A DNA stretch of 15,310 nucleotides, from assembly GCA_037441385.1 (NCBI GenBank), contig JBBISH010000138.1:1-15310 (forward strand). The letters run 5' to 3'. The DNA comes from Myxococcales bacterium (lineage in GTDB: Bacteria; Myxococcota_A; UBA9042). Positions 1-14,520 of this stretch are shown in pieces (the first letter of the stretch is position 1; each line of letters opens with the position of its first letter). The notes beneath the pieces are model-generated. The model saw only the letters and a list, made by a program, of their open reading frames with translations. It did not search any database and was not told the DNA's origin. Position numbers and translations under genes: made by a program.

Positions 1-3000
1 CCGCAGATGGGGCCGCCGCCGCCCTCGATGGTGCAGAGCGCCGAGCAGCCGTCGCCGTCCTTGGTATTGCCGTCGTCGCACTGCTCGCCCGGCTCGAATT
101 GGCCGTTGCCGCACACCGGCTTGGCGCACACCGATGGCTCGCTGACGCAGAAGTAGCCGACTTCTTCCGTGCAGGTCAGGCTGCAGCCGTCGCCGCCCTT
201 CAAGTTGCCGTCGTCGCACTGTTCGCCGAACTCGATCTTGCCGTCGCCGCACACCGCGATTTCTTTGGTGCACTTCGAGGGCGCGCCGATGCAGATGTAG
301 CCGGGTTCGGGCACGCAGGTCGCCGTGCAGCCGTCGTTGTCCTTGGTGTTGCCGTCGTCGCAGATTTCCATGCCCAGGACGTCGACTTTGCCATCGCCGC
401 ACACGGGCTTGATGCAGACCGAGGGCTGCCCGTTGCAGAAGAACCCGAGCTCGACCTGGCAATTGGCGTCGCAGCCGTCGCCCGCCTTGAGCGCGCCGTC
501 GTCGCAGCCTTCGCCCGGATCCAGCTTGCCGTCGCCGCAGATGACGGTGGTCTTCTCGCTTTGGCAAGTTGCGGAGCAGCCATCGCCGTCCTTGAGGTTG
601 CCATCGTCGCATTCTTCGCCCGGCTCCAGTTTCCCGTTGCCGCACACGGACTTAGTGCAGATCGACGGGACGCCGTTGCAGATGTAGCCGGTCTCGACAT
701 CGCAGGTGGCGGAGCAACCGTCGCCGGCTTTCAAGTTGCCGTCGTCGCAGATTTCGCCCATTTCGATGGTGCCGTCGCCGCACACCGCCGCGGCGATCTG
801 GATCTGGCACTTGTCGTTGCAGCCATCGCCGTTCACGATGTTGCCGTCGTCGCACTCTTCGCCGAACTCGATCTTGCCGTTGCCACAGACCGGCTTGTAG
901 CAGCCCTGCGGGCCGGGGACAGCGCAGTAATAGCCCGTCTCGGTCTGGCAGGTCTTGCTGCAGCCGTCGCCGTCGGCGGCGTTGCCGTCGTCGCAGGTTT
1001 CGCCCACTTCTACGGCCGAGTCGCCGCACAGCTTGTTGCAGACCGAGCCCTGGCCAAAGGCGTTGGGCACGCTGACCAGCAAGCCGTCGGGGTTCAGGCC
1101 GCCGCCGGGGTGGTTGAACACGGCCACCGTGATGGTGTTGACGCCGGCCTTGTAGAGCTTGCTGGGCCAGTCGCCAAACGACTGACCGGGGCCGCTAAAG
1201 CCCGAACCGGTAAAGCCCGTGCTCTGGCCGTTGACCAGCACGTCTTTGATCTCGTTGTCGGCCCAAACCGTGCCCGCGAGCACGGTGCTGCCCGCCGCGT
1301 TCGCCGTGGGGATCGTGAAGGTTGCGGTGTAGTAGGTCACCGTCGCCGGCGGCGTTGACTGCAGGCAGCTGTAGCGGTTGACCCAGCGGGTGCCGACCGG
1401 CGGATTTTTCCAGGCACCAGGGGCGCAGTTGTCGGCCACCTTGGCGGGCACTTGCAGGCCGCCCAGGGTCGCCGACCACGACCAGACCAGATCGTCGGCG
1501 TCGATGGCTGCTACGCCGCCCTTGCCGTCCGAGCCCGTGTTGATGTTCGGCGCATTGTGGCAGCCGTAGCCCGCCTCGATCGTGCACTTGGCCGAGCAGC
1601 CGTCGCCGTCCTTGCTGTTCTTGTCGTCGCACTCTTCGTTGGCTTCCAAGAAGCCGTCGCCACACAGTTCCTTGGCGCAGTTCTGATCGCAACCGTCGCC
1701 GTTGGTCAGGTTGCCGTCGTCGCACTGCTCGGTGCCTTGGACCTTGCCGTCGCCGCAAACGACGGGCGGCTCCTTGAAGCACTCCATGTCGCAGCCGTCG
1801 CCCGACTTGGTGTTGCCGTCGTCGCACTGCTCGGTCACTTCCAACTTGCCATTGCCGCACACGGGCTTTTGGCACAGCGACGGGCCGCCCAGGCACACGT
1901 AGCCGGTCTCGGTCTGGCAGGTCTTGCTGCAGCCGTCGCCGTCGACCAGGTTGCCGTCGTCGCAGGTCTCGCCCACTTCGGTGGCGCTGTCGCCGCAGAG
2001 CTTGCTGCAGACCGAGCCGCCGCCAAAGGCATTGGGCAGGCTGACCAGCAGGCCGTCGGGGTTCAGGTTGCCGTTGTTCGGGTGGTTGTAGACGGCGACC
2101 GTGATGGTGTTGGCGCCGGCCTTGTACAGGCCGCTCGACCAAGAACCAAACGACAGGCCGGGGCCGCTGAAGCCCGAACCGGTGAACTTGGTGCTGACGC
2201 CGTTGACCAGCACGTCCAGGATCTCGTTGTCGGCCCAGACGGTGCCGGCCAGCACGGTGGTGGCGGCCGCTCCGGCGCTGGCGATATTGAAGGTGGCGGT
2301 GTAGTAGGTGACGGTCTTCTCGGGGGTCGACTTGCCGCAGCCGTAGCGGTTGATCCAGCTGCTGCCGGCGGGCGCGGTCTGCCAGGCGCCCACGGCGCAG
2401 TTGCCGGCCACGGTGGCTGGGGTCGAGGGGCCGCCCAAGGTCTCGGACCAGGTCCAAATCGGGTCGTCTTGGCCGATGTTCAGGGTGCCGCCGTTGCCGT
2501 CCGAGCCGGTGTTGATGTTGGGCGCGTTCTTGCAGCCGTAGCCGGCCTCGATCGTGCACTTGGCCGAGCAGCCGTCGCCGTCCAGGGTATTCTTGTCGTC
2601 GCATTCTTCGGCGTTTTCAAAGAAGCCGTTGCCGCACAGTTGCTTCTGGCACTTGCTGTCGCAGCCGTCGCCGTCCTTGGTGTTGCCGTCGTCGCACTGT
2701 TCGCCGGCCTCGAGCTTGCCATTGCCGCAGACGGCGGTGGGCAGCTTGGTGCAGACCGACGGCGACGCCGTGGTGCAGGTGAACAGCGGATCCACGGTGC
2801 AGGCGTTGGTGCAGCCGTCGATATCGACGTTGTTGCCGTCGTCGCACGCTTCGCCGGTCTCGACCTTGCCGTTGCCGCACCAGGTGGTCACGCCGCCCGA
2901 GACGGCGCAATCGCCGCTGCAGCCGACCAAACCTGCGGCGAAGATGCCCGTATCGTAGCTGCCATCACCGGCGTCGCAGACCACGATCGTCAGGGTGTGG

Positions 3001-3656
3001 ACGATGGTCGGGTCGTCCAGACCGACTTTGGCCACCAGGCGGGGCGTGGAGCCGTCGTACTGGGTGCCCGTCTCGGTGATGACCGACTTGCCGGAGAAGA
3101 ACGGGCCGTTGATGCTGATGGGGTTGCCCTGCGCGTCCAGTGCGACGTTCTTGCCGTCGACGAACACGCCGACCACGTCGTTGAACTGCTGCCCGACCCA
3201 CTCGGGGTACTCTTCGGTACCCACGATGTAGTCCAGGCGAATGCCGCTCATGCCGGTCTTGATCTTGAAATTGACCGTGAGTTTGGCGGCATCCTTGAAC
3301 AGGGCGCCGGGGGCGATGCTGTCGCACAGGGCGTCGCCGCCACCGCCCGTATTCATGCCGGCGGACGGCGAGTTGTTGGGCGGGAGGGCCATGGTGGCTT
3401 CGCCCGACGTGACGATGATGCCGTTGGCGATGCCGAGCGGGCCATTGGCGTAGGTGCCGCTGGCGACATCTGCACCGCTGTAGGTGGCCGAGACGAGATC
3501 GATGCCCGACGTGCCAAGCAGGGCCTGGGCCAGCTTCAACGCATCCGCGATCGGGGCGATCGTCATGTCGGCGGCGTGTGCCGGCGCCGCGGTCAAGGCC
3601 GCCGCCGACAAGGCCGCCATCGTCGCCAGGCGTGCCGTCCATCGAGCAAATTTCAT
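1..3656 (-). CDS. Large secreted/surface protein: signal peptide, choice-of-anchor-L-like domain, multiple myxobacterial Cys-rich (DUF4215-type) repeats and two lectin-like beta-sandwich inserts; 3' end runs off the window
   Basis: ATG at 3656 with AAAGGAAG upstream. It translates MKFARWTARLATMAALSAAALTAAPAHA|ADM (AxA signal peptidase site), then ..GIIVTSG..YIVGTEEYPEWVGQQFNDVVGVFVDGKNVALD..YDGST..VCDAGDGSYDTGIF (choice-of-anchor-L-like), then about 15 CG[DN]G..CDDGN..GDGC..C repeats. The same frame is still open at the window edge (..DGDGCSALCTIEGGGGPICG). It is presumably absent from the ORF track because there is no stop in the window. Confidence 0.92.
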   Translation of the reverse strand, partial: MKFARWTARLATMAALSAAALTAAPAHAADMTIAPIADALKLAQALLGTSGIDLVSATYSGADVASGTYANGPLGIANGIIVTSGEATMALPPNNSPSAGMNTGGGGDALCDSIAPGALFKDAAKLTVNFKIKTGMSGIRLDYIVGTEEYPEWVGQQFNDVVGVFVDGKNVALDAQGNPISINGPFFSGKSVITETGTQYDGSTPRLVAKVGLDDPTIVHTLTIVVCDAGDGSYDTGIFAAGLVGCSGDCAVSGGVTTWCGNGKVETGEACDDGNNVDIDGCTNACTVDPLFTCTTASPSVCTKLPTAVCGNGKLEAGEQCDDGNTKDGDGCDSKCQKQLCGNGFFENAEECDDKNTLDGDGCSAKCTIEAGYGCKNAPNINTGSDGNGGTLNIGQDDPIWTWSETLGGPSTPATVAGNCAVGAWQTAPAGSSWINRYGCGKSTPEKTVTYYTATFNIASAGAAATTVLAGTVWADNEILDVLVNGVSTKFTGSGFSGPGLSFGSWSSGLYKAGANTITVAVYNHPNNGNLNPDGLLVSLPNAFGGGSVCSKLCGDSATEVGETCDDGNLVDGDGCSKTCQTETGYVCLGGPSLCQKPVCGNGKLEVTEQCDDGNTKSGDGCDMECFKEPPVVCGDGKVQGTEQCDDGNLTNGDGCDQNCAKELCGDGFLEANEECDDKNSKDGDGCSAKCTIEAGYGCHNAPNINTGSDGKGGVAAIDADDLVWSWSATLGGLQVPAKVADNCAPGAWKNPPVGTRWVNRYSCLQSTPPATVTYYTATFTIPTANAAGSTVLAGTVWADNEIKDVLVNGQSTGFTGSGFSGPGQSFGDWPSKLYKAGVNTITVAVFNHPGGGLNPDGLLVSVPNAFGQGSVCNKLCGDSAVEVGETCDDGNAADGDGCSKTCQTETGYYCAVPGPQGCYKPVCGNGKIEFGEECDDGNIVNGDGCNDKCQIQIAAAVCGDGTIEMGEICDDGNLKAGDGCSATCDVETGYICNGVPSICTKSVCGNGKLEPGEECDDGNLKDGDGCSATCQSEKTTVICGDGKLDPGEGCDDGALKAGDGCDANCQVELGFFCNGQPSVCIKPVCGDGKVDVLGMEICDDGNTKDNDGCTATCVPEPGYICIGAPSKCTKEIAVCGDGKIEFGEQCDDGNLKGGDGCSLTCTEEVGYFCVSEPSVCAKPVCGNGQFEPGEQCDDGNTKDGDGCSALCTIEGGGGPIC

Positions 3657-3996
3657 GGCTTCCTTTGTGCCGGGAACGTGATCCCGTGCCCTGAGCGAAA
3701 TGGTGGTGGGGGCGCCCCCCAAAGCGTGTGCCTTCTTCACCAGGCGCGCTCCACCAATGTCGCTTGCGTACCCCAACCTAACCGCCGCGGCCTCCCCATG
3801 AGCGCGGCGATACGAGGGCGAAGAAGTGTAATCGAACCGTCACGGGTTGGTCAAGCTCAGCCCCGGTCATGGTCGCCGTTATCCATTGGCGTCATTGTGT
3901 ATTACTGCGAGATCACGCTGCCGACGTGGCGATCACGGTCGCCGCGGACCACCCACGTGCCGGCCGGTCCGGCGGCCTTCCGCCGCGATCCAACCT

Positions 3997-4044
3997 TGTG
4001 TCATGTCCTTGAATTGGCGCTGTGTCATGTCCTTGAATTGGCGC
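3997..4044. repeat. Perfect 24-bp tandem duplication TGTGTCATGTCCTTGAATTGGCGC x2
   Basis: Read directly at 3997-4020 and 4021-4044. Confidence 0.95.
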
Positions 4045-4050
4045 TAGAAT
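4022..4050 (+). promoter_or_regulatory. Candidate sigma70-type promoter for the downstream hypothetical gene
   Basis: GTGTCA (4022-4027), 17-bp spacer, TAGAAT (4045-4050). It would favour the ATG at 4118 over 4049 as the start. Confidence 0.35.
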
Positions 4051-5086
4051 GGTGCAAGGCTCGCCGCCAATCGGCCTTCGCCCTTGGACCGCGGCCGCCG
4101 GATTGCACTGGAGCCCAATGCCCCCACTGGTCGCACCCCGCCTGCTCGATTCCGCTTGGCAGGACTTGTGTTGGCACACCTTGGCCCAGCTGCCGCTACC
4201 AGCGCACGACGCCGCGAGCCTTTACGACCCGGCCTACATCGCTTGGTGCGACAAGTACTTGCTGGCCGACCGGCGCACGCTCGCCGTCGACGCCGGGCAG
4301 CTCGCCAGCTGGGTCGCGCACGCGCCGCACGGGCACTACCTGCAGCTGTGGCCGGCGCTGCACGACTCGGTCGAGGACTTTTCCAATCAGGCCAGCCGGC
4401 CGTTTCGCGAGGTGCGATGGCCGGATGCGGCGCGGCAACACCTGGCCCGCGCGTTGCTGCGGGCACTGCCCGAGGGCCTGATCGAGGTCTTCCGTGCCGG
4501 CCTTTGGGGCGAGCTGCGCGCTGGCTACTTGGACCTTCGCGAACGGCAGGTGCGGTCGCGCCTGGCTGGTCAATGGCACGCTATTGCGTCTGATCTGACA
4601 GGGCTGGGCGCGCACGTGCCGGCGGCGAGGCCGGTCACGTGGTCCATCCATCACCCTTTGCGCCGCCACGGTCGACTGCTTCGCGAACCCACGCTGCGGA
4701 TTGCGATTGGATTGCCCGACCCGGAGCTGGGGGTGCCCCGGTACGCCCCCATCTTGCAGGGCTGGCACGAGTTGGTGTTGCTGCAGGTGCAACGGGCCGC
4801 ACCGCCTGGAGAAGCCGCCGATCCGCGCGCCGGTCGGCCGGGTCATGCCGCCCACCAACGGGTCGAGCGCCTGGCCCTGACGCTGGGGGCGCGCCTGCTG
4901 GCGGTGCCGGAGTGGACAGAGCCGCAAGAAGCTTGGCTGCGCTGGGTGTTGCGGCGCGTACCGGCGGCTCAGGTGGCCGACGTGCGCGGCTGGGTGGCAG
5001 AGGGTCGTTTGCTCGACGACGCGTCCCGCAACGAACTGGAGGATTGGACGACCCGCGTTGGCGCAGCGTTGCGGTCTGACACATAG
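4049..5086 (+). CDS. Hypothetical protein, convergent with and overlapping the B12-rSAM/PIMT gene (true start may be the ATG at 4118, MPPLVAPR)
   Basis: 345-aa ORF with globular-protein composition (HTLAQLP..ASLYDPAY..RTL..QGWHELV..VERLAL). It fills a gap with no other plausible gene. No family recognised. Confidence 0.7.
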   Translation: MVQGSPPIGLRPWTAAAGLHWSPMPPLVAPRLLDSAWQDLCWHTLAQLPLPAHDAASLYDPAYIAWCDKYLLADRRTLAVDAGQLASWVAHAPHGHYLQLWPALHDSVEDFSNQASRPFREVRWPDAARQHLARALLRALPEGLIEVFRAGLWGELRAGYLDLRERQVRSRLAGQWHAIASDLTGLGAHVPAARPVTWSIHHPLRRHGRLLREPTLRIAIGLPDPELGVPRYAPILQGWHELVLLQVQRAAPPGEAADPRAGRPGHAAHQRVERLALTLGARLLAVPEWTEPQEAWLRWVLRRVPAAQVADVRGWVAEGRLLDDASRNELEDWTTRVGAALRSDT

Positions 5087-7182
5087 CGAACCGGGCCGTG
5101 TTGGCTGACCCGCCAGCCCGTGGGGTCGCGCTGCCAGCGGGTGAGGACCTGTTCCCCGTGGCCTAGCGGCGCCACCACCACCGCGCCCACCGGCAGGCGG
5201 TCGAGCAGGTCGCGCGGAGGCTCGGTCAGGGCAAAGGTGAACAGGACTTTGGTGAACCCGTCCGCCAGGTTGGCAAAGTCGCGCTGGGCTTGCTCCACCT
5301 GAACCTGCGGCAGGCTGGCCAGCCACCGCTTGGCGCGCCCCGCTAGGCTGGGTTCGGCTTCGACCGTGCGCACTTGGCCCGTCTCGCCCACGACGTAGGC
5401 CGCTAGGGCCGCGCCGTAGCCCGTGCCCGTGCCCAGCTCCAAGAAGTGGTCGCCGGGCTGCAGGTCCAGCAGGGTGTAGTTCAAGACGTAGGCGTGAGGC
5501 GCCGACACCGTTGCGGTCTGGTCGGCCAGCAAGGGCAGGGCGCGGTCCAGTCCGGCCCAGGGCAGGTGCTCGGCGGCCAGGAACTGCTCGCGCGGTACGG
5601 CGATCAGCGCCTCGCGGACGAGATCGCTTGCGCCAAAGCGCGCTTGCAGCGTGTGCGCGAGCGTGTGCCGCTGGTCGCGGAGCAGTTCGGCGGCTTCGGG
5701 ATCCCGGCGAGCATCGCTAGCTGGGTGCCCAAGTAGGTGCCGCCACAGGTGAAAGTCGCGGATGGTCTGCAGTTGCGTCGGCGGGCTGAACAACCGCACT
5801 TGGTGTTCTAGTGAGCGGGCAAACCAGGCGCGGGCCGAGCCCTGGTAGGCGAATTCGGCTTGGGCTTGGCGGACTAGCGGCCCAAACAGCTGGTAGGTCC
5901 GGCGGTGGCCCGCGCGAAAGTCCAGCGTGCGCGATGGATCGACCCAGGCGGCGGTAAAGGCGGGGTCGGCTCCGTCCCACCAGCGCGGGCAGTGGACCTG
6001 CGTGCCGTAACGCTCTGTAAAGTCGCGCAGGTTTAGATCGATGGGCGAGCCGGGATAGAAGCGGTAGGGGTCGATGGACACAAAGCCGGTGTGCGCCCAG
6101 TCGTGCTGCAACAGGTCGCGAACGTACGCCGCAGAAGTGTGCAAGCTCCCTTCGGTTTCCCCCGGATGACCGGCGATCAGGTTGGCGCCCCACGGCAGGC
6201 CCAGCCGGCCCGCCACCTGGATGGCCTGGCCAAAGCGCTGCAAGTAGTCGCCCGCGTCGTGGCTTTTGTGGACCACCGCCAACATGGCCGGGTCGCCCGA
6301 CTCCAGGCCAAAGCCCAGACCGAATCCGGCGTGGTGGAACTGCTGCAGATCGGCGTCGCTCAGCAGGTCCACGCGGCTGAGCGCCCAGAACTTGGCCACC
6401 GGCAGCTGCAGCGCCTGCAAACGGTCCAGCATCTCGCGCCGCCAAGCCGGTTGCAGGCCAAATAGCGGATCGCACAGGAAAAGTGGCCGGTTTGTCAGAT
6501 CCACGGTGGCGTGCAGGGCCAGCAGTTCCTGTTCGGCGCGCGCCGGCGAAAACGCCCGCCAGCCAGGACTTTGCTTGGCCGACTCCATGCAAAACGCGCA
6601 GTGGAACGGGCAACCCCGGCTCAGCGAGAAGGTCACCTGCGCCTTGGCCGCCCGCGCCGCCGGCAGATAGCGCGCAAGCAGCGACCAGTCCTGCGGCGGC
6701 AAATCGTCCATCTTGGCGACGATCTCGGGCCCCAGGACGCGCTCGCTCAGCCGCATCCCCGCCGCCACTGCCTGTACGATGCGCAGCAGGGGCCGCTCGC
6801 CCTCGCCCACCACCACATGGTCAAAGGGGCTGTCTGCGCTGGTGAAATCGCCCGGCCGGGCGCTGGGATGGTAGCCGCCCACCACCAAACACACGCCGGG
6901 GTTGCGCTCGCGGATGGCCACACCCAGGTGGTAAGTCTTCAAGTAGTCGAAGGAACTGTAGCAGGACAGGCCGACCACGTCCCACTGCCGCTGGAATACC
7001 TGCTGCGGCTCGGGCTTGGGCAGGCGGGCTTCCCAATCCAAGTCCAGGACTTGCACGTCGGCCGCGCTGTGGGCGCGGAGGTACGAGCCCAGCGACACCA
7101 GGTGCGGCACGCCAAAACTGCCGTCGGCCGCAAAGCTGCAGCCGGGCGAGACCAGCAGCACCCTTACGGGGGAATTCGCCAT
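4969..7182 (-). CDS. Cobalamin-binding radical SAM protein with a C-terminal protein-L-isoaspartate O-methyltransferase (PIMT/Pcm)-like domain
   Basis: B12-binding motifs (LVSLGSYL, DVVGLSCYSS, VVGGYHPS, DHVVVGEGE), the radical SAM motif SRGCPFHCAFC and GLESGDP. From about aa 515 it shows PIMT motifs: ALIAVPREQFL, TVSAPH, LQPGDHFLELGTGTGYGAA, LPVGAVVVAPLG, GPVRYV. Confidence 0.9.
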   Translation of the reverse strand: MANSPVRVLLVSPGCSFAADGSFGVPHLVSLGSYLRAHSAADVQVLDLDWEARLPKPEPQQVFQRQWDVVGLSCYSSFDYLKTYHLGVAIRERNPGVCLVVGGYHPSARPGDFTSADSPFDHVVVGEGERPLLRIVQAVAAGMRLSERVLGPEIVAKMDDLPPQDWSLLARYLPAARAAKAQVTFSLSRGCPFHCAFCMESAKQSPGWRAFSPARAEQELLALHATVDLTNRPLFLCDPLFGLQPAWRREMLDRLQALQLPVAKFWALSRVDLLSDADLQQFHHAGFGLGFGLESGDPAMLAVVHKSHDAGDYLQRFGQAIQVAGRLGLPWGANLIAGHPGETEGSLHTSAAYVRDLLQHDWAHTGFVSIDPYRFYPGSPIDLNLRDFTERYGTQVHCPRWWDGADPAFTAAWVDPSRTLDFRAGHRRTYQLFGPLVRQAQAEFAYQGSARAWFARSLEHQVRLFSPPTQLQTIRDFHLWRHLLGHPASDARRDPEAAELLRDQRHTLAHTLQARFGASDLVREALIAVPREQFLAAEHLPWAGLDRALPLLADQTATVSAPHAYVLNYTLLDLQPGDHFLELGTGTGYGAALAAYVVGETGQVRTVEAEPSLAGRAKRWLASLPQVQVEQAQRDFANLADGFTKVLFTFALTEPPRDLLDRLPVGAVVVAPLGHGEQVLTRWQRDPTGWRVSQHGPVRYVSDRNAAPTRVVQSSSSLRDASSSKRPSATQPRTSAT

Positions 7183-7185
7183 GTG

Positions 7186-7704
7186 CTAGCCAGGTTCGCT
7201 GGTGTCGGGCGCCGGCGGCGACAGGCAAATCTGCGGGGCGTCGGGCACGTCGTCCAATGCGTCCGGGGCAATCTTCAAGCAGACTTGCGGGGCGTCGTCG
7301 CCGGTGTCGCCCAGCGCGTCGTACGCATCTGGTTCGCGAGGCGACAGGCAGATTTGCGGAGCGTCGTCGCCGTCTTGGGCGTCCAGCGTGTCGGGCAGCG
7401 GCGGCTCCAGGCAGATCTGCGGGCCGTCGTCGCTGGCGTCGGTCGCGTCGGGAAAGACTCGCGACAGGCAGGCTTGCACCTCGCCCACCGCGGCGTCCGA
7501 GGTGTCGGCCGTGTCGGCCGTGTCAGCCGTGTCCGTCGTGTTGACGGTAGCCACACTCGATGAGAGGCACGCTTGCGCACCACAGTCCGCCAGCGCCACC
7601 GCCAAACCGGCGCCCATCAGGGACTTGCGGATAAAGGCGGCCCGCCGCCGCAGAATCTCGCGGGTGTCGGGGTCTAGCTTGGGATCTTCAGGGTCGAGGG
7701 TCAT
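7186..7704 (-). CDS. Putative multi-core precursor / modified lipoprotein with six Q-[AIV]-C-L repeats
   Basis: RBS GAGG upstream. The stop lies 3 bp before the start of the B12-rSAM gene. Leader ILRRRAAFIRKSLMGAGLAVALADC. Repeats AQACLS, VQACLS, PQICLE, PQICLS, PQVCLK and PQICLS sit in Asp-rich spacers. Confidence 0.85.
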   Translation of the reverse strand: MTLDPEDPKLDPDTREILRRRAAFIRKSLMGAGLAVALADCGAQACLSSSVATVNTTDTADTADTADTSDAAVGEVQACLSRVFPDATDASDDGPQICLEPPLPDTLDAQDGDDAPQICLSPREPDAYDALGDTGDDAPQVCLKIAPDALDDVPDAPQICLSPPAPDTSEPG

Positions 7705-7769
7705 CGTGCGACCTCGCTATTCATCAAGGTTTTTAGCAGGCTGACACAAGGGTGCCTTGATGCAAGGCT

Positions 7770-8783
7770 TCAGCCAAAGTAGTCCGGAACCACATGGCGC
7801 GCGACGAACGGGTCTAATTCGGCGGCGCAGCCGGTGCGCCACTCGGCCGCAGCACCACAACCACCCAGGCATGTTGCCTGATACGCACAGCCTTGGCAAA
7901 AGGCCGGAATGGCTTGCCGGAAGGCCGTCACCCCCGGCAGCTCGGACCAGCGTGCGCCATCGCCGGCGAACAGGTTGCCGACCGGGGACTTCTGCAGCGT
8001 ACACAAGCGCAGGTCGCCGTTGGCATTTAGCGCCGGCTCGCCCACCGCGGTGCCCGCCGAGCAGCTGCCAAAGCGGATGTGGGGGAACGCCTTCCGGTCG
8101 ATGACGCACGGCGGAATCGGCATGGTGCACGGCACCTTGAGGGCCAAACGCGGGGCAGCTTCGTCGGCGGCGCGCAAAGCCTGCAGCACCTGAGTGCGCG
8201 TCGGCAGCAGTTCGCTCGCGCTGCCCGTGGCGTACCCCGACGGGTTGAAGCGGTTGAAGGCCACCTGCTTGACGCCCGCCGCGGCAAATTGCTCAAGCAC
8301 TTCCTGCGCATCGGGCCAGCTTTTCGCGGTGCACAGGTACGAGCCCAGCACCCGCACCCCGGCAGCGCGCATCCGAGCAATCGCTGCGGTAGTGCGGACA
8401 TACGAGCCCTGGCCGCAGTGGGCGTCGTGGACCGCGGCCGAAGCGCCGGCCAGCGTCACCTGAATCCCCGCGACCGCCTTCTGCGCCAGAAACCGGATGT
8501 CCAGGTCTGGATCCGGCCCGCCGTTCGAGATGATCATCACCCGCCGACCGGCCGCGGCGACGGCGTCGATCAACTGGGGAAGATCCTTGCGGAGCAGCGG
8601 CTCGCCGCCCGTCAGCGTCACGTGCTCCAGCTCGGGGTCGGCGAGCACGAGGTCCAGGACCCGGCGCAGCTCGGCGGTGGTGGCATCGGCCAGACCCTTG
8701 CCGCCGTCGTCGCGCCAGGCGTTGTAGCAATACGCGCACTTTTGGTTGCAGTGCGCGGTGACTTCCAGGGCGACGGACTTCAT
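7770..8783 (-). CDS. Radical SAM/SPASM domain protein (PqqE/AlbA-like peptide maturase superfamily)
   Basis: Start reassigned to the ATG at 8783 (MKSVALEVTAHCNQKCAYCYN). It has LTGGEPLLR and IISNG, plus the SPASM cysteines CSAG..NGDLRLC..CQGC..TCLGGC..LDP. 337 aa. Confidence 0.93.
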   Translation of the reverse strand: MKSVALEVTAHCNQKCAYCYNAWRDDGGKGLADATTAELRRVLDLVLADPELEHVTLTGGEPLLRKDLPQLIDAVAAAGRRVMIISNGGPDPDLDIRFLAQKAVAGIQVTLAGASAAVHDAHCGQGSYVRTTAAIARMRAAGVRVLGSYLCTAKSWPDAQEVLEQFAAAGVKQVAFNRFNPSGYATGSASELLPTRTQVLQALRAADEAAPRLALKVPCTMPIPPCVIDRKAFPHIRFGSCSAGTAVGEPALNANGDLRLCTLQKSPVGNLFAGDGARWSELPGVTAFRQAIPAFCQGCAYQATCLGGCGAAAEWRTGCAAELDPFVARHVVPDYFG

Positions 8784-9050
8784 GCCGGTCAGGTTACACC
8801 CCTGGCGGGGGCGGGCCAAGCGGGTGTGGCGGAGTGGTGACGCCACGGGCGGGCGTGTGGAGACCGGGGGCGTGGCCCTTTGAATAGGCGCGAGGTGGCG
8901 GCGGGGTCCGCCGCCTTGGGAACTGCGTGTTCGTTGCGCAGGCCAAGTTCCGATGCCAACGCCCGCCGTCCCACTCAGAGCGCCAGGGGTAGCGGCTGGC
9001 CTCTGTGCCGGTCGCCCAGTCCGCGCCAGCCTGCGGCAACCGTCGTTCCC

Positions 9051-9150
9051 GGGCTGGGGCCGCGCCATCGCAAATCCGTCATTGCGGCGAAAGCCGCAAT
9101 CCAGGGGCGAACCTCCGGTCGTACCAGAACCCATGCACTGAGGGGGCCAC
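9051..9150. repeat. REP-like element, copy 1 (core hairpin ATTGCGGC-GAAA-GCCGCAAT at 9081-9100)
   Basis: Perfect 8-bp stem with a GAAA loop. Flanks are shared with the copies at about 12264-12355 and 14521-14580. Confidence 0.8.
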
Positions 9151-9225
9151 ATCGCTCCCGCGTCACCTTGACCACCCCCACCGCCCGCCGCAGCCTGGCC
9201 CGGTCACTCATCTATCGAGGCCCCC

Positions 9226-9500
9226 ATGCCCGCCTGGCGCCGCACCCACCTGCACCCCGGCCTGTACGACAAGCCTGTGAGCGAGCGCCTGGCCCACGAG
9301 TTGGAAAAGCTGGGCCCGCAGGCGCACATCGCGCAGCTGCCGAAGGGGCCGACGCCAACCCGAGCCTGGAGGCCCACTTGGGCGAGGCGGTGGCGCTCGC
9401 GCTGCAGGCTACGGCCAGCCACGACGACCACGGCGCGACCACCCGGGCGCTCGTGCAGGACCTGCTGGCGGTGATGCACAAGCACGCGCCGCGGAGCTTG
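9226..9500 (+). pseudogene. Frameshifted, truncated N-terminal gene fragment, possibly of a PLD/helicase/DUF3427-type protein
   Basis: LHPGLYDKPVSERLAHELEKL..QLPKG continues in another frame as ADANPSLEAHLGEAVALAL..RALVQDLLAVM if one G is added to the GGGG run at about 9345. The family resemblance is from memory only. Confidence 0.35.
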
Positions 9501-9590
9501 CTTGCGTCGACCAGTTCACGCGACCACGGTTGCCAGCGCAAGCAGGCCCAACGCAACGCAGCGAGCGGGCTGGTGACGTGGTTGCCAGGT

Positions 9591-10009
9591 CTAGCCCGCG
9601 GTGGCCCTGGCCAGCTGCAACTGCGCTGCCAGCCAGTCCGTGGCGGCCGTGGCAATGGGCAGGAATTCCATGGCCTCATCGCGGGTGATCTGCGTCACGC
9701 GCAGGCGCGGAACCTTGTCGTCGATGGCGAACGGCGTCAGCGCATCCAGTGCTTCAACGGGAAGTTCCGGCGCGAGGCCAACGTGCGCGAGCGCATCGAA
9801 AAGCCGCGTCAGTTGGTGGGTCCGCGGTGGCTCCACGCCGCGCAGAACCAGGGCGCCCTTTAGTGCTTTTCTACGGCCTGCTGGCAGTGGAAGGCAATCG
9901 CCCAACCATGCGCGGTGCTGCGTCCGACGCACGCTGCGGCCACCTCGCAGTCGATCCGCGCGAACTCGAACCAAGGCGCGGCAAGGTCGAGCAGCTCGTC
10001 ACGGGGCAT
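9591..10009 (-). pseudogene. HEPN-domain toxin with a 1-nt frameshift (pseudogene or sequencing error)
   Basis: The N-half MPRDELLDLAAPWFEFARID..AFHCQQAVEK and the C-half ALKGALVLRGVEPPRTHQL..LTPFAI are in different frames. Adding one base at the T-run 9867-9870 restores FHCQQAVEKALK. The start overlaps the stop of the upstream MNT gene. Confidence 0.85.
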
Positions 10010-10340
10010 CGTGCAGGAGCTCCCGGCCCTCGCAGGCGATGCGGTGCTCGAAGGCCGGTGCAACTTGGCTGAGGCGCCGCCAGTCGGCTAGCGACTCGGT
10101 CAGGATGTCGAAAGTGGCATCCAAACCGCGCAAGGCCGCGTAGATCGCCCCCGCCGTGCGCCAATTGACCGGGCCAGGCAACACGACCAGTAGGTCGTAG
10201 TCCGAATCGCCGCTACCGGTACCCCGAGCCCGCGACCCAAACAACACGAGGTGCGCGGGAGCGAATTGCCCACGGATCCGGCGTACGGCTTCGTCCAGAA
10301 TCGCGTCTGCTTGCGGGTTGTTGGCGGTCGGCGTAGCCAT
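9999..10340 (-). CDS. Minimal nucleotidyltransferase (MNT) antitoxin 1
   Basis: LVLFGSRARG..SDYDLLVV..FDIL motifs. It is translationally coupled to the HEPN gene. The start was set at MATPTANN. Confidence 0.9.
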   Translation of the reverse strand: MATPTANNPQADAILDEAVRRIRGQFAPAHLVLFGSRARGTGSGDSDYDLLVVLPGPVNWRTAGAIYAALRGLDATFDILTESLADWRRLSQVAPAFEHRIACEGRELLHDAP

Positions 10341-10427
10341 GTCGAGTGCCTTCACGGCCCATGCTGGGGGTGGCATGGCAAGCGGTCAAGCAGCGAATTC
10401 CTGGCGCCGCGTTTCAGCTGCCCGGCC

Positions 10428-10479
10428 AGGGGCGGAGCTTCCATGCCCGCCCGGTTCGGCTGCGGATTGCGGGGCGTGG
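10428..10479. repeat. ~52-bp dispersed repeat (second copy at 12195-12246)
   Basis: AGGGGCGG[A/T]GCTTCCATGCCCGCCCGGTTCGG.. is present at both sites. Confidence 0.85.
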
Positions 10480-10486
10480 GCGGGCC

Positions 10487-10947
10487 GGCGGAGCGACGGC
10501 AGAACACCGACAAAGCGGCGTCAAGATAGCCCAGGGAATGAATTCCCGGGCTATCTTGACGCCGCCCCTCTACAGGGGCGTCGCCGACCCGCGTTTTGGT
10601 GAGTGCCCGGTCAACTCCCCGCTCCCAGCTGCGCCTCCAACCGCGCCACCTGGGCCTTCAGCGCCGTCAGGGCGTCCTGCACCCGCTGCCGCTGGGCACC
10701 GCGGAGCTTGCTCGCGTCCACCGTCGCCCACGCCTGCTGCCAGTCTTGCAGGTCCTTGCCCGCCTTGACCAATTGCGTGACCAGCCGCCCCGGCTGGTAG
10801 GTCGGCGCGGGCGGCTCGGCGGGCGGCGGCGGCGCCTGGGTGCCGGGCGTGCTCGGGTCGGTGTCGTAGTAGTGGCCGTCGTCGGCGCGGTGGATGGCGT
10901 CTTCGAGCTGCAGCACGGTCCAGCCCTGGCTCGTGGTGTCGAAGGCC
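10487..10947. repeat. ~460-bp direct repeat, copy 1 (hairpins plus the 3' half of the hypothetical gene)
   Basis: Aligns by eye with 14725-15186 at high identity, offset about 4238 bp. Confidence 0.93.
10515..10565. repeat. Long palindromic REP-like element, possibly a terminator for the 10611-11321 gene
   Basis: Perfect 18-bp arms GCGGCGTCAAGATAGCCC / GGGCTATCTTGACGCCGC enclose an inner GGGAAT-GA-ATTCCC. The hairpin CGCCCCT-CTAC-AGGGGCG overlaps its right end. Confidence 0.85.
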
Positions 10948-11321
10948 AGGCGGGCGCGCAGGTTCGGCTCACCCACGCGGGCCAGGCTGACGATGTGGTT
11001 GAATTTCAGGGAGTCGCGCACGCCCGGTGGCAGGCCATCCCAGGCGATGCGGGCGAGGATGCACTGGCGGGCCAACACGGTCGAGATGCCCACGTCGCTC
11101 AGCTCGTCTTTGCAGAGCTTGGCGAACAAGGCGAAGCTGGCCTCTTTGTCCGGGTTTTTGTCGTGGTAGGCGTGGGCGCTGCCGCCAAAGAAGCGGTCGA
11201 GGAACAGCTTGCCGGCCTGCAGGCGGAAGGCCAGCAGCAGGTCGCGGGACAGGCGGTTGAGTTCGGCGAGCATGTCGGCGTAGTCGTCTTTGGTTTTGGC
11301 TAGTTGTAGCTCGCTGGTCAT
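10611..11321 (-). CDS. Hypothetical protein (helical, possible DNA-binding module, Pro-rich linker, C-terminal coiled coil)
   Basis: Strong RBS AAGGAG before the ATG; 236 aa. The segment LKFNHIVSLARV..RARLA..GWTVLQLEDAI loosely recalls ParB-like/DUF1016-N helical regions. A paralogous fragment lies at 14850-15186. Confidence 0.85.
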   Translation of the reverse strand: MTSELQLAKTKDDYADMLAELNRLSRDLLLAFRLQAGKLFLDRFFGGSAHAYHDKNPDKEASFALFAKLCKDELSDVGISTVLARQCILARIAWDGLPPGVRDSLKFNHIVSLARVGEPNLRARLAFDTTSQGWTVLQLEDAIHRADDGHYYDTDPSTPGTQAPPPPAEPPAPTYQPGRLVTQLVKAGKDLQDWQQAWATVDASKLRGAQRQRVQDALTALKAQVARLEAQLGAGS

Positions 11322-11542
11322 GGCGCTCCTTGGGGCCGTGGAGGGTTGGGTGCGAGCTTTTCATCATTGACCACCTGCCGTATGTTCGAAAGCTTGCAGG
11401 TTGGCCCGTCGTGGTGGGGCGGCGGGGTGGGTCGATGGTGCGCTTTCGTGCGGGTTTGGGGAAGGGGGCGGAGCGCTCCGATCGGGCTGGCACACTGTTC
11501 GCCGTGCGTGCTACTCTGGGTGAGGTGCTCAGGGAGGTTGCT

Positions 11543-11866
11543 GTGACGCTCGACTCCGCCGCTCGCCAGCAGATTGCGCTTCGCGTGCGCAGGGTTCTGC
11601 CCCAGGTGCGCCAGCTGCTGTTGTTCGGCTCGCAGGCGCGCGGCGACGCGCGTGCGGACAGCGACGTGGACCTCTTGCTGATCGTGCCGGACGGTGAGGA
11701 CCGCACAGCCGCGGCCATCGCTGCTCGCCGGAGCCTCATGGGCATGGGGCGTGGCTTCGACCTGCTGGTGCTGCACGAGGCAGAGTGGCGGCAGCTGCAG
11801 GACTCGCCTGCTTTCTACCACCGGCAAATTCGCCACGACGCGGTACGGGTAGACACTGCAGCTTGA
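11543..11866 (+). CDS. MNT antitoxin-like nucleotidyltransferase 2
   Basis: GGGAGG RBS then GTG at 11543. LLLFGSQARGDARADSDVDLLLIV..FDLL; 107 aa. Confidence 0.9.
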   Translation: MTLDSAARQQIALRVRRVLPQVRQLLLFGSQARGDARADSDVDLLLIVPDGEDRTAAAIAARRSLMGMGRGFDLLVLHEAEWRQLQDSPAFYHRQIRHDAVRVDTAA

Positions 11867-11915
11867 CCGGCCCGAGGTCCAGGCGTGGTGGGCGCTGTCG
11901 GGCTCGGACCTGCCG
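11853..11915 (+). pseudogene. Vestigial HEPN N-terminus after MNT 2
   Basis: An overlapping frame reads TLQLDRPEVQAWWALSGSDL, matching MLPLEHPAVHAWWQLAG after MNT 3. The position equivalent to the ATG is ACA. Confidence 0.55.
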
Positions 11916-11968
11916 GTTAGCGACAGTGACACGAATAGTCCGTGCTGTTAGGACGTTGGGCGCATGAG

Positions 11969-12077
11969 CCCTCACCCCGCCGCTTTGCGGCACCCCGCTC
12001 TCCCGGCGCCGCCGGCGCCACTCGCTCGCTTCGCTCACCGCGGGGACCCCTCCTCTCCCAAAGCTTTGGGCGAGGGG
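11969..12077. repeat. CCCTCACCCC..CTCTCCC..GGGxGAGGG-type palindromic REP-like element
   Basis: CCCTCACCCC..GCCGC-TTT-GCGGC..CTCTCCC, followed by CCCCTCCTCTCCCAAAGCTTTGGGCGAGGGG containing the palindrome CCCAAAGCTTTGGG. Confidence 0.6.
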
Positions 12078-12194
12078 TAACTATTGATTTCCCAATGTGT
12101 CTGCCATTGCGGCGCAGGGTGCTGGCGGGCAATAGCCACTTAGCGCCGGCGGGCCACGGAAACAGGCTCGGCCGGCACGGCCGAGGGTCCGAGT

Positions 12195-12246
12195 AGGGGC
12201 GGTGCTTCCATGCCCGCCCGGTTCGGGTGTGGGTTGCAGGTCGTGG
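12195..12246. repeat. ~52-bp dispersed repeat, copy 2
   Basis: Matches 10428-10479. Confidence 0.85.
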
Positions 12247-12263
12247 CGATTCTGGTCGGGCGT

Positions 12264-12355
12264 CCGCGCCATCCAATAACCGCCATTGCGGCGAAAGCCG
12301 CAACCCGGGCGAGGACCACCGGTCGTGCCAGGGCCCATGCGCTCAGGGGCCACCT
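12264..12355. repeat. REP-like GAAA-loop element, copy 2
   Basis: CCGCGCCATC..CATTGCGGCGAAAGCCGCAAC..CCGGTCGT.CCAG..CCCATGC..GGGGCCAC, matching 9060-9150. Confidence 0.8.
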
Positions 12356-12451
12356 CGAGTCCATGCACACGCGACCGAGGCGCTTGCCAGGAGGCGGCGC
12401 GACGACTATTCTGCAACAACCGTCCGAGGTTGCCGGAGCCTGAGGCGCCAA

Positions 12452-12775
12452 GTGGTCACCGAACGCGAGCTCTACGCGACGTTCCGTGAGCGCTTGGCCC
12501 TTGCGGCTCCCGAGCTGCTCGATGTGCTGTTGTTCGGTTCGCGCGCCCGCGGCGAGGCCCGGCCGGACAGCGACGTGGACTTGGTGCTCGTCCTTCCCGA
12601 GGGCGCTGACCGGACCGAGACTTTGCTGCGCGCCCGCCGGGCGTTGCGCCATTTGGGCGTTGGCTTTGACCTGCTCTTGTTGAGCGAGGCGGAGTGGGCG
12701 CAGGTGCGCCGCGACCCCAGTTGGTTCGGCCGCGAGATCAGCCGCGACGCCCGGCGCCTGGATGTTGCCGCTTGA
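12452..12775 (+). CDS. MNT antitoxin-like nucleotidyltransferase 3 (paralog of MNT 2)
   Basis: GAGG then GTG at 12452. VLLFGSRARGEARPDSDVDLVLV..GFDLL..EAEW; 107 aa and collinear with MNT 2. Confidence 0.9.
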   Translation: MVTERELYATFRERLALAAPELLDVLLFGSRARGEARPDSDVDLVLVLPEGADRTETLLRARRALRHLGVGFDLLLLSEAEWAQVRRDPSWFGREISRDARRLDVAA

Positions 12776-12959
12776 GCATCCGGCGGTGCACGCTTGGTGG
12801 CAGCTTGCGGGAACTTGGCGATGTCGCCCGGCTGAGTTGCTGGTTCTTGGGCGGCACTCCCTGGGCCCCGTTTCGAACCTAGCGGAACTGCTTGCGCGCG
12901 TCGGCCCGGCCGAACCGAACCGACTTGACCGCCAGGAAGGCAACTGCTACAAAGTGTAG
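12762..12959 (+). pseudogene. Degenerate HEPN remnant coupled to MNT 3
   Basis: The ATG overlaps the MNT 3 end. MLPLEHPAVHAWWQLAG resembles the first HEPN helix. No FHxQQAxEK or THxL motif follows. Confidence 0.5.
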
Positions 12960-12981
12960 GCTTGCACTTGTAGATGCCTAC
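12925..12981 (+). promoter_or_regulatory. Candidate abiE promoter with overlapping inverted repeats
   Basis: TTGACC (12925-30), 17-bp spacer, TACAAA (12948-53) preceded by TGn. Inverted repeats CTACAAAGTG..CACTTGTAG and GTAGGC..GCCTAC. Confidence 0.5.
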
Positions 12982-13606
12982 GATTCGAACCATGCTGCAC
13001 GACGCCCGCTCCAGACACGCAACCGCGCTGCTCAACCTGATCGCCGCCCGCGGCGTCGTGCGCTCCATGGACCTGCTGGAACTGGGCATTCCGCGGAGCA
13101 CGCTGCAGCGGCTGGAACGCCACGGGCAGGTCGCCAAGCTCGGCCGCGGCCTGTACGCGCTGGCCGGTGCCGAGTTGGGCCAAGGCGCCTCGCTGGCCGC
13201 CGTCGCGCGCCGAGTGCCCGGGTCGGTCGTCTGCCTGCTGTCGGCCCTGCGCTTTCACGCGATGGGGACAGAGAATCCGCCTGAGGTCTGGCTGGCTGTG
13301 GACCGCAAGGCCCGTCGCCCGGCCATCGCAGGTCTGGCCCTGCGCGTGGTCCGGTTCAGCGCCACTCTGCTGACCGAAGGCACCGCCGTACACATTCTGG
13401 AGAACGTTCCGGTCCGCATCACCACGCCCGCGCGCACCGTCGCCGACTGCTTCAAGTACCGCAACAAGCTTGGCATGGACGTGGCGCTGGCCGCACTGCA
13501 GAGCTACATCGGCGGTCGCATGGGCGATCTCGACGACCTGTGGCGGCAGGCGGTCCTTTGCCGCGTGGCTAACGTGATGCGCCCCTACTTGGAGGCCATG
13601 GCGTGA
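12974..13606 (+). CDS. abiEi: Type IV toxin-antitoxin AbiEi-family antitoxin / transcriptional regulator (start may be 12992)
   Basis: N-terminal wHTH GVVRSMDLLELGIPRSTLQRL..LGRGLY, then VVCLLSALRFH and TPARTVADCFKYRNKLGMDVA..MRPYLEA. GTGA overlap with the next gene. Confidence 0.92.
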   Translation: MPTIRTMLHDARSRHATALLNLIAARGVVRSMDLLELGIPRSTLQRLERHGQVAKLGRGLYALAGAELGQGASLAAVARRVPGSVVCLLSALRFHAMGTENPPEVWLAVDRKARRPAIAGLALRVVRFSATLLTEGTAVHILENVPVRITTPARTVADCFKYRNKLGMDVALAALQSYIGGRMGDLDDLWRQAVLCRVANVMRPYLEAMA

Positions 13607-14517: not shown

Positions 14518-14520
14518 TGC

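Follow-up and report, generated by a model that had tools for sequence, protein, structure and literature searches.

A candidate four-component maturation system for Cys-Leu repeat proteins in Myxococcota and other bacteria

The cassette and its distribution

We analysed a stretch of 15,310 nucleotides from a Myxococcales bacterium (GenBank assembly GCA_037441385.1, contig JBBISH010000138.1, positions 1 to 15,310), hereafter the window, in which four genes probably constitute a maturation system for small, mostly disordered proteins carrying 1 to 11 copies of the motif P-x-x-C-L. Three of them lie on the minus strand: the gene of a radical S-adenosylmethionine (SAM) enzyme with a SPASM domain (7770..8783; 337 aa, ATG start), that of the candidate substrate, or precursor, with its Cys-Leu repeats (7186..7704; 172 aa), and that of a fusion protein joining a B12-binding radical SAM enzyme to a domain resembling protein isoaspartyl methyltransferases (PIMTs) (4969..7182; 737 aa). 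The fourth, gene X (4118..5086, plus strand; 322 aa), is convergent with the fusion gene. These four gene families co-travel across Myxococcota, some Planctomycetota and one Aminicenantes genome, the motif Cys essentially always precedes Leu, and both enzymes retain their cluster-binding and SAM-binding motifs. That the cassette modifies the Cys-Leu proteins seems to us quite likely; that the Cys is itself the modified atom is an even call.

The distribution of the cassette was followed with an alignment of 20 members of the fusion family (A1), which was searched against GTDB with one genome per species. A relative of the fusion protein is encoded in 257 of the 292 candidate stretches, and 80 of these 257 loci were kept; all locus counts given below refer to them. 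By record title, they comprise 60 Myxococcota lineages, 10 ‘Deltaproteobacteria’, 4 ‘Proteobacteria’, 4 Planctomycetota, 1 Aminicenantes and 1 further bacterium, and the carriers include a cultured organism, Paraliomyxa miuraensis SMH-27-4 (locus L022). Public protein data contain at least 647 relatives of the fusion protein (E<=0.001 among 8000 scored candidates), and all three Pfam domains are present in 117 of the 120 best.

A SPASM homologue is encoded in 72/80 loci, in 71 of them on the same strand as the fusion gene and upstream of it. Of the eight loci that lack one, six have their contig broken off within 2.6 kb upstream of the fusion gene, and in a further one (L004) about 1.8 kb upstream gave no match. 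The precursor was recognised by a hidden Markov model (HMM) of its leader in 62 loci as well as in the window, and a truncated copy in L012 brings the count to 63/80. Of the 47 loci whose fusion gene is flanked by at least 5 kb in each direction, 46 carry the SPASM gene, 37 the precursor, 34 gene X and 31 all three. In 26 loci a precursor gene stands between those of the enzymes, in 15 it is upstream of the SPASM gene and in 18 downstream, these positions not being exclusive; it is usually convergent in the Nannocystaceae loci. An earlier reading made from the sequence alone had suggested a three-gene functional cassette with the small Cys-motif protein as its likely substrate, and had named co-occurrence of Cys-Leu repeat open reading frames (ORFs) with the enzymes as the test; a Cys-Leu repeat gene in 63/80 loci and a SPASM gene upstream in 71/80 bear out both points. 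What adjoins the enzymes in these 63 loci has the make-up expected in a cluster for a ribosomally made, post-translationally modified peptide (RiPP), namely a conserved N-terminus followed by a variable repeat region, as seen in an alignment of 33 members of the substrate family (A2).

Several observations weigh against a maturation system of this kind. No recognisable precursor was detected in the fetched DNA of 17/80 loci, or in 10 of the 47 with at least 5 kb of flanks, and it is missing despite full 10 kb flanks from L010, L019, L024, L029, L032, L037, L039 and L054. Conversely, L018 has a precursor and a fusion gene with full flanks and no SPASM gene within 10 kb. No RiPP recognition element (RRE, PqqD-like), leader peptidase or exporter was found by Pfam or NCBIfam among the proteins of the window. 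These eight loci without a precursor, together with the lack of an RRE, would suit a quite different explanation, in which the Cys-Leu protein is merely a co-located exported lipoprotein and a lipid or a small molecule is the substrate of the radical SAM enzymes and X. The fusion protein does match models of lipid and hopanoid enzymes weakly (rSAM_ladder_B12 at 4e-12, HpnR and HpnJ, all with its B12-radical SAM part), and the SPASM enzyme has a weak PDB match to archaeal tetraether synthase (5.5e-4). However, the linkage survives at least three gene orders and in the window is as tight as 3 nt from stop to start; the near-absolute Cys-Leu rule suggests enzymatic recognition; the best NCBIfam matches of the SPASM enzyme are peptide maturases; and enzymes of the PIMT family are established to work on peptides or proteins. 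We therefore consider a bystander role of the Cys-Leu protein quite improbable.

The gene boundaries in the window, which is GC-rich (0.65-0.71), are well defined. On re-checking, the earlier description of three co-oriented genes proved exact in coordinates and gaps (minus strand): 65 nt separate the SPASM gene from the 172-aa ORF and 3 nt the latter from the fusion gene. Pfam domains and translation likewise agree with two radical SAM enzymes standing around a small protein with six Cys motifs. The SPASM ORF can be extended to 9152; we place its start at 8783, because the extension (GC content at the three codon positions, GC1/2/3, of 0.69/0.74/0.70) lacks the third-position (GC3) signature of coding DNA and the homologues begin at MKSVALEV, as does the window protein at its ATG. 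An 86-nt element found in three copies of 72-100% identity (9060-9145, 12264-12349 and 14532-14617) has one copy just upstream of the SPASM gene, and this copy creates the false N-terminal extension. For the precursor, GC3 favours the frame on the minus strand (0.72/0.53/0.83), in preference to ORF 7202..7744 (0.52/0.72/0.80), which overlaps it on the plus strand. The plus-strand ORF of X also shows a coding GC3 pattern, and its start was set at M24 of the longest ORF (4118) because the homologues measure 322-323 aa. The convergent fusion and X genes share 118 nt at their 3' ends (4969-5086), an overlap that is repeated in L001, L002 and L003. An Rfam scan of the whole window returned no family, hence no cobalamin riboswitch, and a tRNA scan of the window was equally empty. 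No terminator-like site was detected in 3700-9600; for X, a promoter-like site lies at 4022-4050.

The Cys-Leu proteins and their N-terminus

Six of the seven Cys residues of the 172-aa protein precede Leu (C46, C79, C98, C119, C142 and C160), each with Gln at -2, and the only Cys outside such a pair is C41. The Q-x-C-L motifs occupy an Asp/Pro-rich repeat region (7189..7581, minus strand), with the Cys codons at 7567-7569, 7468-7470, 7411-7413, 7348-7350, 7279-7281 and 7225-7227. In the called genes of related loci, Leu follows Cys in 575 of 6476 cases (8.9%), and the chance of at least six such pairs among seven Cys is p = 3.2e-6. The DNA copies of the repeat are mutually just 60-89% identical, so the motif is maintained at the peptide level and does not stem from a recent duplication.

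The substrate family was built from ORFs between the enzyme genes, then by a motif scan and finally with an HMM of the N-terminus. In database searches, phmmer with the single 172-aa sequence retrieved only 19 relatives and a profile was needed; run against a large protein collection, it gave at least 797 proteins (E<=0.001), none of which has a Pfam domain or a name other than ‘hypothetical’. An Atlas search with the precursor returned unnamed clusters only. In the family logo of 328 motifs, Pro stands at -3 in 88%, Gln, Arg, Glu, Met or Thr at -2, where the residue mostly has a gamma carbon, and Pro, Val, Ala or Ile at -1; the Cys-Leu pair is followed mostly by Ser, Lys, Thr, Glu or Asp at +2, then by Pro, Val or Ile and a Pro-rich stretch. 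The Cys and Leu of this logo are at 100% by construction, and the number of Cys residues without a following Leu serves as the independent measure: exactly one is present in 98 of the 111 unique precursors from the loci. Of 118 profile-found proteins that were examined, 112 have exactly one such Cys, and across all 118 Pro stands at -3 in 673 of 722 motifs. The copy number per protein runs from 1 to 11, with 6 to 85 residues between motifs. The ‘six QxCL cores’ of the sequence-only reading do not hold for the family, since its general motif is P-x-x-C-L; the Q-x-C-L of the window, with Asp at -5, is a local variant of it.

Nor did the proposal of Asp O-methylation on each repeat survive. No Asp or Asn position is conserved across the 328 motifs, and that the PIMT domain thus has no conserved Asp target in the repeats also counts against the maturation scheme itself. 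Measured from residue 36 onward, and hence including part of the hydrophobic stretch, the Asp content of precursors ranges from 0.9% to 23.7% with the PIMT motifs intact. The planctomycete precursors in particular have 0.9-1.6% Asp beside intact PIMT domains, and on this ground and that of the logo we rejected an Asp in each repeat as the target of the PIMT domain. Conserved Asp positions shared by the whole family occur in the N-terminal box alone.

Two members illustrate how far the family departs from the window protein. In a Planctomycetaceae genome, the precursor (L009:8713-9972, plus strand) is a 419-aa protein in which the family N-terminus precedes a WD40 propeller recognised by Pfam, with two Cys-Leu motifs before the propeller and two after it. 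Cys-Leu motifs can thus decorate a folded protein. In contrast, Sandaracinaceae loci carry short precursor genes in tandem arrays. That of L055 (L055:4900-8887, plus strand) comprises a dozen such genes, of which several are identical copies (10 unique matches to the N-terminus HMM; 12 rows in the table of Asp contents). Every array member combines a single A-C-x-C-L motif with an acidic tail that is hypervariable, the tails of L055 ending in EDAP.

Such arrays, with a conserved N-terminus and hypervariable tails, are typical of RiPP precursor families and would fit a classical secreted RiPP, in which the N-terminus is a cleaved leader, each repeat is a core and small peptides are released as antibiotics or signals. 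The box in front of the twin arginines is conserved beyond the needs of an export signal, and X could be the leader peptidase, given its invariant H-E pair and its weak, non-significant fold matches to zincins. The wider family is difficult to reconcile with this scheme. No cleavage motif is conserved between the repeats among the 328 motifs, and their spacing of 6 to 85 residues is irregular; the WD40 protein has motifs on both sides of its fold; the N-terminus has the length of an export signal, a twin arginine and a hydrophobic stretch; and no conserved ABC transporter or recognisable protease occurs among the recurrent neighbours of the related loci, the other recurrent ones being kinases, sigma-54 regulators and a metallo-beta-lactamase (MBL)-fold protein. 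We regard a classical RiPP as unlikely, and the substrate resembles a modified exported protein more closely than it does an antibiotic made of leader and core.

The N-terminal 41 residues of the window protein (7582..7704, minus strand) comprise an acidic DxD box, the sequence I-L-R-R-R-A-A-F-I-R-K, a hydrophobic stretch and C41. The same layout is found throughout A2: a short acidic start, the box D-x-D-[R/T]-x-A-I-L-x-R-R-x-x-F-[I/V], an Ala/Gly/Leu-rich stretch, one Cys and then the low-complexity repeats. R20 is invariant, I17, L18, R21 and C41 are at least 90% conserved, and the RR pair is nearly invariant in the family. The lone Cys lies a median of 37 aa from Met and 19 aa from RR, and the stretch between RR and Cys has a mean hydropathy of 1.28. 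In 101 of 111 precursors the first Cys after RR, which in the 98 is the lone non-CL Cys, is preceded by Ala, Gly or Ser, and the same holds for the lone non-CL Cys of 103 of the 112 profile-found proteins. These features suggest that the N-terminus may be dual-purpose, an enzyme recognition box combined with an export signal. The twin-arginine translocation (Tat) pathway is favoured as the export route because radical SAM enzymes are cytoplasmic and modification must precede export. A Tat-like signal with a lipobox-like Cys would also make a dedicated transporter unnecessary.

The details of this N-terminus do not all agree with such a signal. The Tat consensus spacing R-R-x-[FLMYW]-[LIVM] is met in 21/111 precursors, while 88/111 have RRxxF[VI], with one residue extra between RR and the hydrophobic pair; the R-R-A-A-F-I-R-K of the window protein is accordingly one residue longer than the consensus S/T-R-R-x-F-L-K. 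The Tat signal model TIGR01409 came close to its cutoff in planctomycete members (16.2-16.3 bits vs 16.7) and gave E<=10 in 5/33 members, never reaching the cutoff. It is also unusual for a signal peptide to have a conserved, acidic segment ahead of RR, as these proteins do. As for lipidation, a PROSITE-like lipobox, [LVI][ASTVI][GAS]-C, is satisfied in just 65/111, and the L-A-D-C of the window protein fails the rule with an Asp before C41. Weak Pfam matches were obtained to LPAM_MltD (4/33 members) and to the Rieske Tat-signal model (3/33). A ‘lipo-invert’ C-terminal anchor (NF058595) was matched by 3/33 precursors at 17.4 bits vs 37; as this match is below the cutoff and restricted to the hydrophobic N-terminus, it was treated as one of composition and discarded. 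Weighing these points, we place export by Tat slightly short of an even chance and find lipidation of the product in most members somewhat doubtful.

An exported protein with SPASM-dependent Cys modification brings to mind the sulfatases, and the SPASM enzyme could in principle oxidise the motif Cys to formylglycine before export. The sulfatase-maturating enzyme anSME is likewise a SPASM protein that modifies a Cys of an export-bound protein, and the substrate here bears a signal-like N-terminus. But the anSME motif C/S-x-P/A-x-R is absent, the logo having Leu at +1 and no Arg at +4; the precursors contain no sulfatase domain; and no anSME model is among the best 25 of the 78 NCBIfam matches of the SPASM enzyme. 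Formylglycine formation is therefore very improbable, and we return to the maturation system proposed above.

The enzymes and gene X

The SPASM protein belongs to the radical SAM superfamily, with PF04055 at 2.1e-19 (70.7 bits vs a gathering threshold of 29.5), Fer4_12 and a CxxxCxxC motif at C12/C16/C19 in the translation. SPASM domains are defined by the pattern Cx9-15Gx4C ... Cx2Cx5Cx3C ... C, which holds two auxiliary clusters. The complete seven-Cys pattern can be read from the translation (C241-x14-G-x4-C261; C296-x2-C299-x5-C305-x3-C309; C319), so that the enzyme is predicted to hold three [4Fe-4S] clusters. It has no N-terminal RRE domain, and the sequence opens at its cluster motif, which begins at residue 12. 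Assignment to a named family failed: the best NCBIfam match is GeoRSP at 79 bits vs a cutoff of 400, ScmE and MftC come next, and the 25 listed of 78 matches are all far below their cutoffs. The named maturase families GeoRSP, ScmE/F, MftC, StsB, PqqE, HxsC, SkfB, PapB, WgkB and ACGX all stay below cutoff. Sequence relatives in the PDB are distant (SkfB at 5e-9, PqqE at 2e-8).

The fusion protein consists of a B12-binding domain (about 7095..6784, minus strand; PF02310, 46.7 bits vs 32.1, residues 30-133), a radical SAM core (about 6627..6136, minus strand; PF04055, 36.7 bits vs 29.5, with C191/C195/C198), a helical middle region and a PIMT-like methyltransferase domain (about 5655..5077, minus strand; PF01135 (PCMT), 88.1 bits vs 20.3). 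C191/C195/C198 and a GxGxGYG motif are invariant in A1. The AlphaFold2 (AF2) model has a predicted local distance difference test score (pLDDT) of 88 and a predicted template modelling score (pTM) of 0.83. The last ~31 residues (707-737) are disordered in it, with pLDDT below 50, and below 30 in the part that overlaps X; this tail is antisense to X and unconserved. No NCBIfam model reaches its cutoff with the fusion protein (rSAM_ocin_1 46.9 vs 281.85 bits, ApyD 51.5 vs 750).

Foldseek places the N-terminal two thirds of the fusion protein with AprD4, TsrM, TokK, OxsB, MgmA and CysS (E 3e-18 to 1e-12). The presence of PF02310 and these folds (E-values to cobalamin-dependent radical SAM enzymes from 1e-15 to 3e-18) assign it to this class. 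C-methylation is the commonest chemistry among cobalamin-dependent radical SAM enzymes, and it had been named as the reaction when the domain was first pointed out; the domain assignment stands, and the reaction has become one possibility among several conceivable ones. The closest solved fold is that of AprD4, a non-methylating dehydratase, which tells against a simple C-methylation scheme.

The C-terminal third aligns with archaeal and bacterial PIMTs at a root mean square deviation (rmsd) of 1.6-2.0 A; with an archaeal PIMT, the template modelling (TM) score normalised to the target is 0.86-0.89 and the rmsd 1.9 A. The motifs VPRExF, T-V-S-A-P-H (ATVSAPH) and LELGTGTGY align to those of the solved PIMTs 2yxe and 4o29, and the family retains them as VPRExF, T-[VIL]-S-A-x-H and LE-x-G-x-G-x-GY. 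Because these motifs match the solved enzymes and 72 of 74 examined rows retain SA-x-H, the domain looks active and carboxyl-directed. It does not reach the NCBIfam equivalogs of canonical repair PIMTs (101.9 vs 282, 95.9 vs 188 and 88.8 vs 159 bits), and it is part of a 737-aa fusion, whereas canonical repair PIMTs are stand-alone proteins of ~210 aa.

It had been stated that the window contains no recognisable protease, transporter or RRE. This is literally correct; it overlooked the conserved fourth gene X and the Tat/lipobox-like N-terminus described above. X was found by tblastn in 21 loci and by an HMM of 16 members in 55/80 loci plus the window. It lies mostly directly after the fusion gene in convergent orientation; in Nannocystaceae, the precursor gene precedes X on the strand of X. 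X also occurs fused to either enzyme. A Planctomycetaceae locus (L009:14711-16660, minus strand) has a SPASM enzyme-X in-frame fusion in a 672-codon open frame, and three loci (L040:9893-12970, L042:9893-12964 and L060:3002-5350, plus strand) encode B12-radical SAM/PIMT-like/X triple fusions in one ORF with X as the C-terminus. Two of these loci, L040 and L042, have a degenerate or lost PIMT substrate motif and precursors that are Thr/Pro-rich and Asp-poor.

X resembles no family that we could recognise. Pfam identified none in the window protein and nothing recurrent in the 16 members, comparison with PDB sequences gave no match at E<=1, and an Atlas search returned unnamed clusters only. The AF2 model is confident (pLDDT 93, pTM 0.91) and found nothing by Foldseek at E<=0.001 in either PDB or BFVD. 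The invariant residues are H20, L22, A23, D58, L81, L181, G185, R186, G198, H217, E218 and E250. A three-stranded sheet, a helix with H-E and a later helix with Glu are reminiscent of zincin peptidases; the second His of HExxH is absent, and the zincin-like rows (collagenase, MATCAP, M32) are non-significant (probability <=0.14, TM <=0.22). RRE domains are known both free and fused to different enzymes, and since X behaves in the same manner we propose that it may be a shared docking module in place of an RRE.

In the maturation scheme that we favour, the protein would be made with an N-terminus of ~37 aa combining the recognition box D-x-D-[R/T]-x-A-I-L-x-R-R with a twin-arginine-type signal, namely RR, ~19 mildly hydrophobic residues and [A/G/S]-Cys. 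In the cytoplasm, each Cys-Leu motif would lose a hydrogen, from the motif itself or from beside it, to the SPASM enzyme. With Cys-rich substrates, SPASM enzymes most commonly form a thioether, and the likeliest product here would be one between the Cys sulfur and a neighbouring residue, of the sactionine or ranthionine type; we put forward thioether formation itself only tentatively. The B12-binding radical SAM domain would make a second radical modification, and the fused PIMT-like domain would methylate a carboxylate which, if it belongs to the precursor, would have conserved Asp available only in the N-terminal box. X would serve both enzymes, either as the docking module or as a peptidase-like processing factor. 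Export of the modified protein would follow, Tat being the probable route since the protein has to be modified first, and many members may carry a lipid anchor at the lone non-CL Cys. The WD40 member would fit modification and export of a folded protein, as its motifs flank the propeller. That all the reaction steps derive from family membership weakens this scheme. In its most far-reaching form, the system would represent a new class of radical-SAM-tailored exported proteins: the SPASM enzyme and the fusion protein would install a novel Cys-centred modification on each P-x-x-C-L, the N-terminus would be both leader and Tat/lipoprotein signal, the product would be a surface-anchored, cross-linked ‘RiPP-lipoprotein’ and X would be a new fold replacing the RRE. 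This full version is conceivable and, on balance, rather unlikely.

Among the other recurrent neighbours, a cluster of MBL-fold proteins of ~470 aa spans 26 loci, divergent upstream of the SPASM gene (e.g. L011:7405-8817, minus strand). Its hosts are Nannocystaceae, Labilithrix and some Polyangiaceae, it is not in the window, and a few members are likely to be spurious ORF calls or to lie elsewhere in the locus. This protein could be a further accessory enzyme. Ser/Thr kinases and sigma-54 regulators were rejected as components, being common in these genomes and not fixed in position.

The DUF4215 gene and the toxin-antitoxin genes of the window are not counted in the system; relatives of the former occur in three related loci only and those of the latter in none. 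Downstream of the cassette, 3-3776 (minus strand) encodes a secreted-looking protein of at least 1258 aa that runs off the window edge, with 14 Cys-rich DUF4215 repeats (CGNG..E.GE.CDDGN..DGC); its gene has long internal DNA repeats with a period of ~970 nt. The best of its three relatives is in L001, the only one of these loci where it adjoins the cassette. Directly upstream of the cassette is a toxin-antitoxin island (9591-10376, minus strand; 11330-11866, 12227-12775 and 12974-14517, plus strand), relatives of which were found in none of the related loci. It includes a pair of HEPN (9591-9974) and nucleotidyltransferase (9999-10376) genes, two further MntA-like nucleotidyltransferase paralogues and an AbiEi/AbiEii pair whose genes overlap by 4 nt. 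A 300-nt direct repeat of 87% identity (10528-10827 and 14767-15066) and shorter repeats (10428/12195 and 10469/14707) are also present; together with the 86-nt element, they are possibly intergenic repeated elements or duplicated module borders of the toxin-antitoxin island. A 236-aa ORF (10611-11321, minus strand) shows a coding bias that is very strong, with a GC3 of 0.91, and matches nothing in Pfam or NCBIfam.

Relation to known systems and significance

The nearest concept is the CrpA/CrpC pair of Methanococcus voltae, in which a SPASM enzyme installs ranthionine thioethers on a Cys-repeat protein (PMC13692751). Both cases have a SPASM enzyme beside a repeat-Cys protein with a conserved N-terminal leader, ~47 residues long in CrpA, and both would involve a RiPP-like modification of a protein and not of a short peptide (PMC13692751). 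The archaeal system differs in that CrpC has a predicted RRE and CrpA has C-x-x-Q/D motifs; compared by description, the passages on CrpA/CrpC mention no B12-radical SAM/PIMT fusion, no gene X and no signal-like N-terminus (PMC13692751). In a further case, the SPASM enzyme QhpD forms Cys thioethers, in the cytoplasm, in the protein subunit QhpC, the gamma subunit of quinohemoprotein amine dehydrogenase (PMC13692751). The likeness lies in SPASM-made Cys thioethers on a protein before export, the reaction in the present system being proposed from the genes alone. QhpC, which reaches the periplasm after its thioethers have formed, is unlike the Cys-Leu proteins in being a single structured enzyme subunit with no repeats, and QhpD/QhpC lacks a B12 enzyme, a PIMT and X. 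With anSME and the sulfatases, the cassette would share SPASM modification of Cys in a signal-bearing protein before export; the motif is another one, and the Cys-Leu target is not an enzyme active site.

The ranthipeptide and sactipeptide maturases PapB, CteB, StsB and SkfB resemble the SPASM enzyme in combining a radical SAM core and a full SPASM domain with repeated Cys motifs as substrate, PapB acting on six C-x3-D motifs. The NCBIfam scores are far under the cutoffs for PapB (42.9/340 bits), StsB (63/625) and SkfB (48.6/300), and the cassette lacks both an RRE and a conserved Asp, Glu or Asn as acceptor, its motif being P-x-x-C-L. PIMT homologues of lanthipeptide, lasso peptide, graspetide and imiditide pathways make aspartimide (TIGR04364, TIGR04188). 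The PIMT-like domain shares their fold and motifs and weakly matches the FxLD (1.4e-18) and graspetide methyltransferase (5.7e-15) models. It differs from them in its scores (67/320 and 55/380 bits), in its fusion to a B12 radical SAM enzyme and in the lack of a conserved Asp in the repeat. Finally, the Rossmann-like B12 domain and radical SAM barrel are shared with cobalamin radical SAM enzymes (TokK, TsrM, CysS, MgmA, PoyB/C and ApyD, and the non-methylating AprD4, OxsB and ThnL); the C-terminal PIMT fusion is not, and no named family is reached at the NCBIfam cutoff.

The cassette does not appear to have been described. In the text of a 2026 review of B12 radical SAM enzymes that was open to word search, ‘isoaspart’, ‘fused’ and ‘fusion’ are absent (PMC12931638), and the main text of a 2023 compendium of RiPP radical SAM enzymes contains no isoaspartyl, PIMT, Myxococc-, twin-arginine or lipoprotein (PMC10288494). 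A full-text literature search, which had subscription journals outside its scope, yielded no paper describing the cassette. The sequence-only reading had recognised no named RiPP class, and we agree, as no NCBIfam model is reached at its cutoff and the literature searched holds no description. The parts come from known superfamilies; the novelty lies in how the genes are combined, in the substrate family with its export-signal-like leader, and in protein X.

The system is widespread, with relatives of the fusion protein in 257 species genomes and at least 647 enzyme and at least 797 substrate clusters that carry a hypothetical or generic annotation. It joins three enzyme chemistries in an arrangement for which we found no description, together with a confident fold that has no match in PDB or BFVD. 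A five-residue motif present in many copies in one soluble substrate makes it a target for enzyme discovery. If the Cys-Leu proteins are indeed modified before export by Tat and anchored by lipid, RiPP-type radical chemistry would be tied to cell-envelope protein pathways, and the small set of whole-protein radical SAM modifications, represented by the sulfatases, QhpC and CrpA, would be enlarged.

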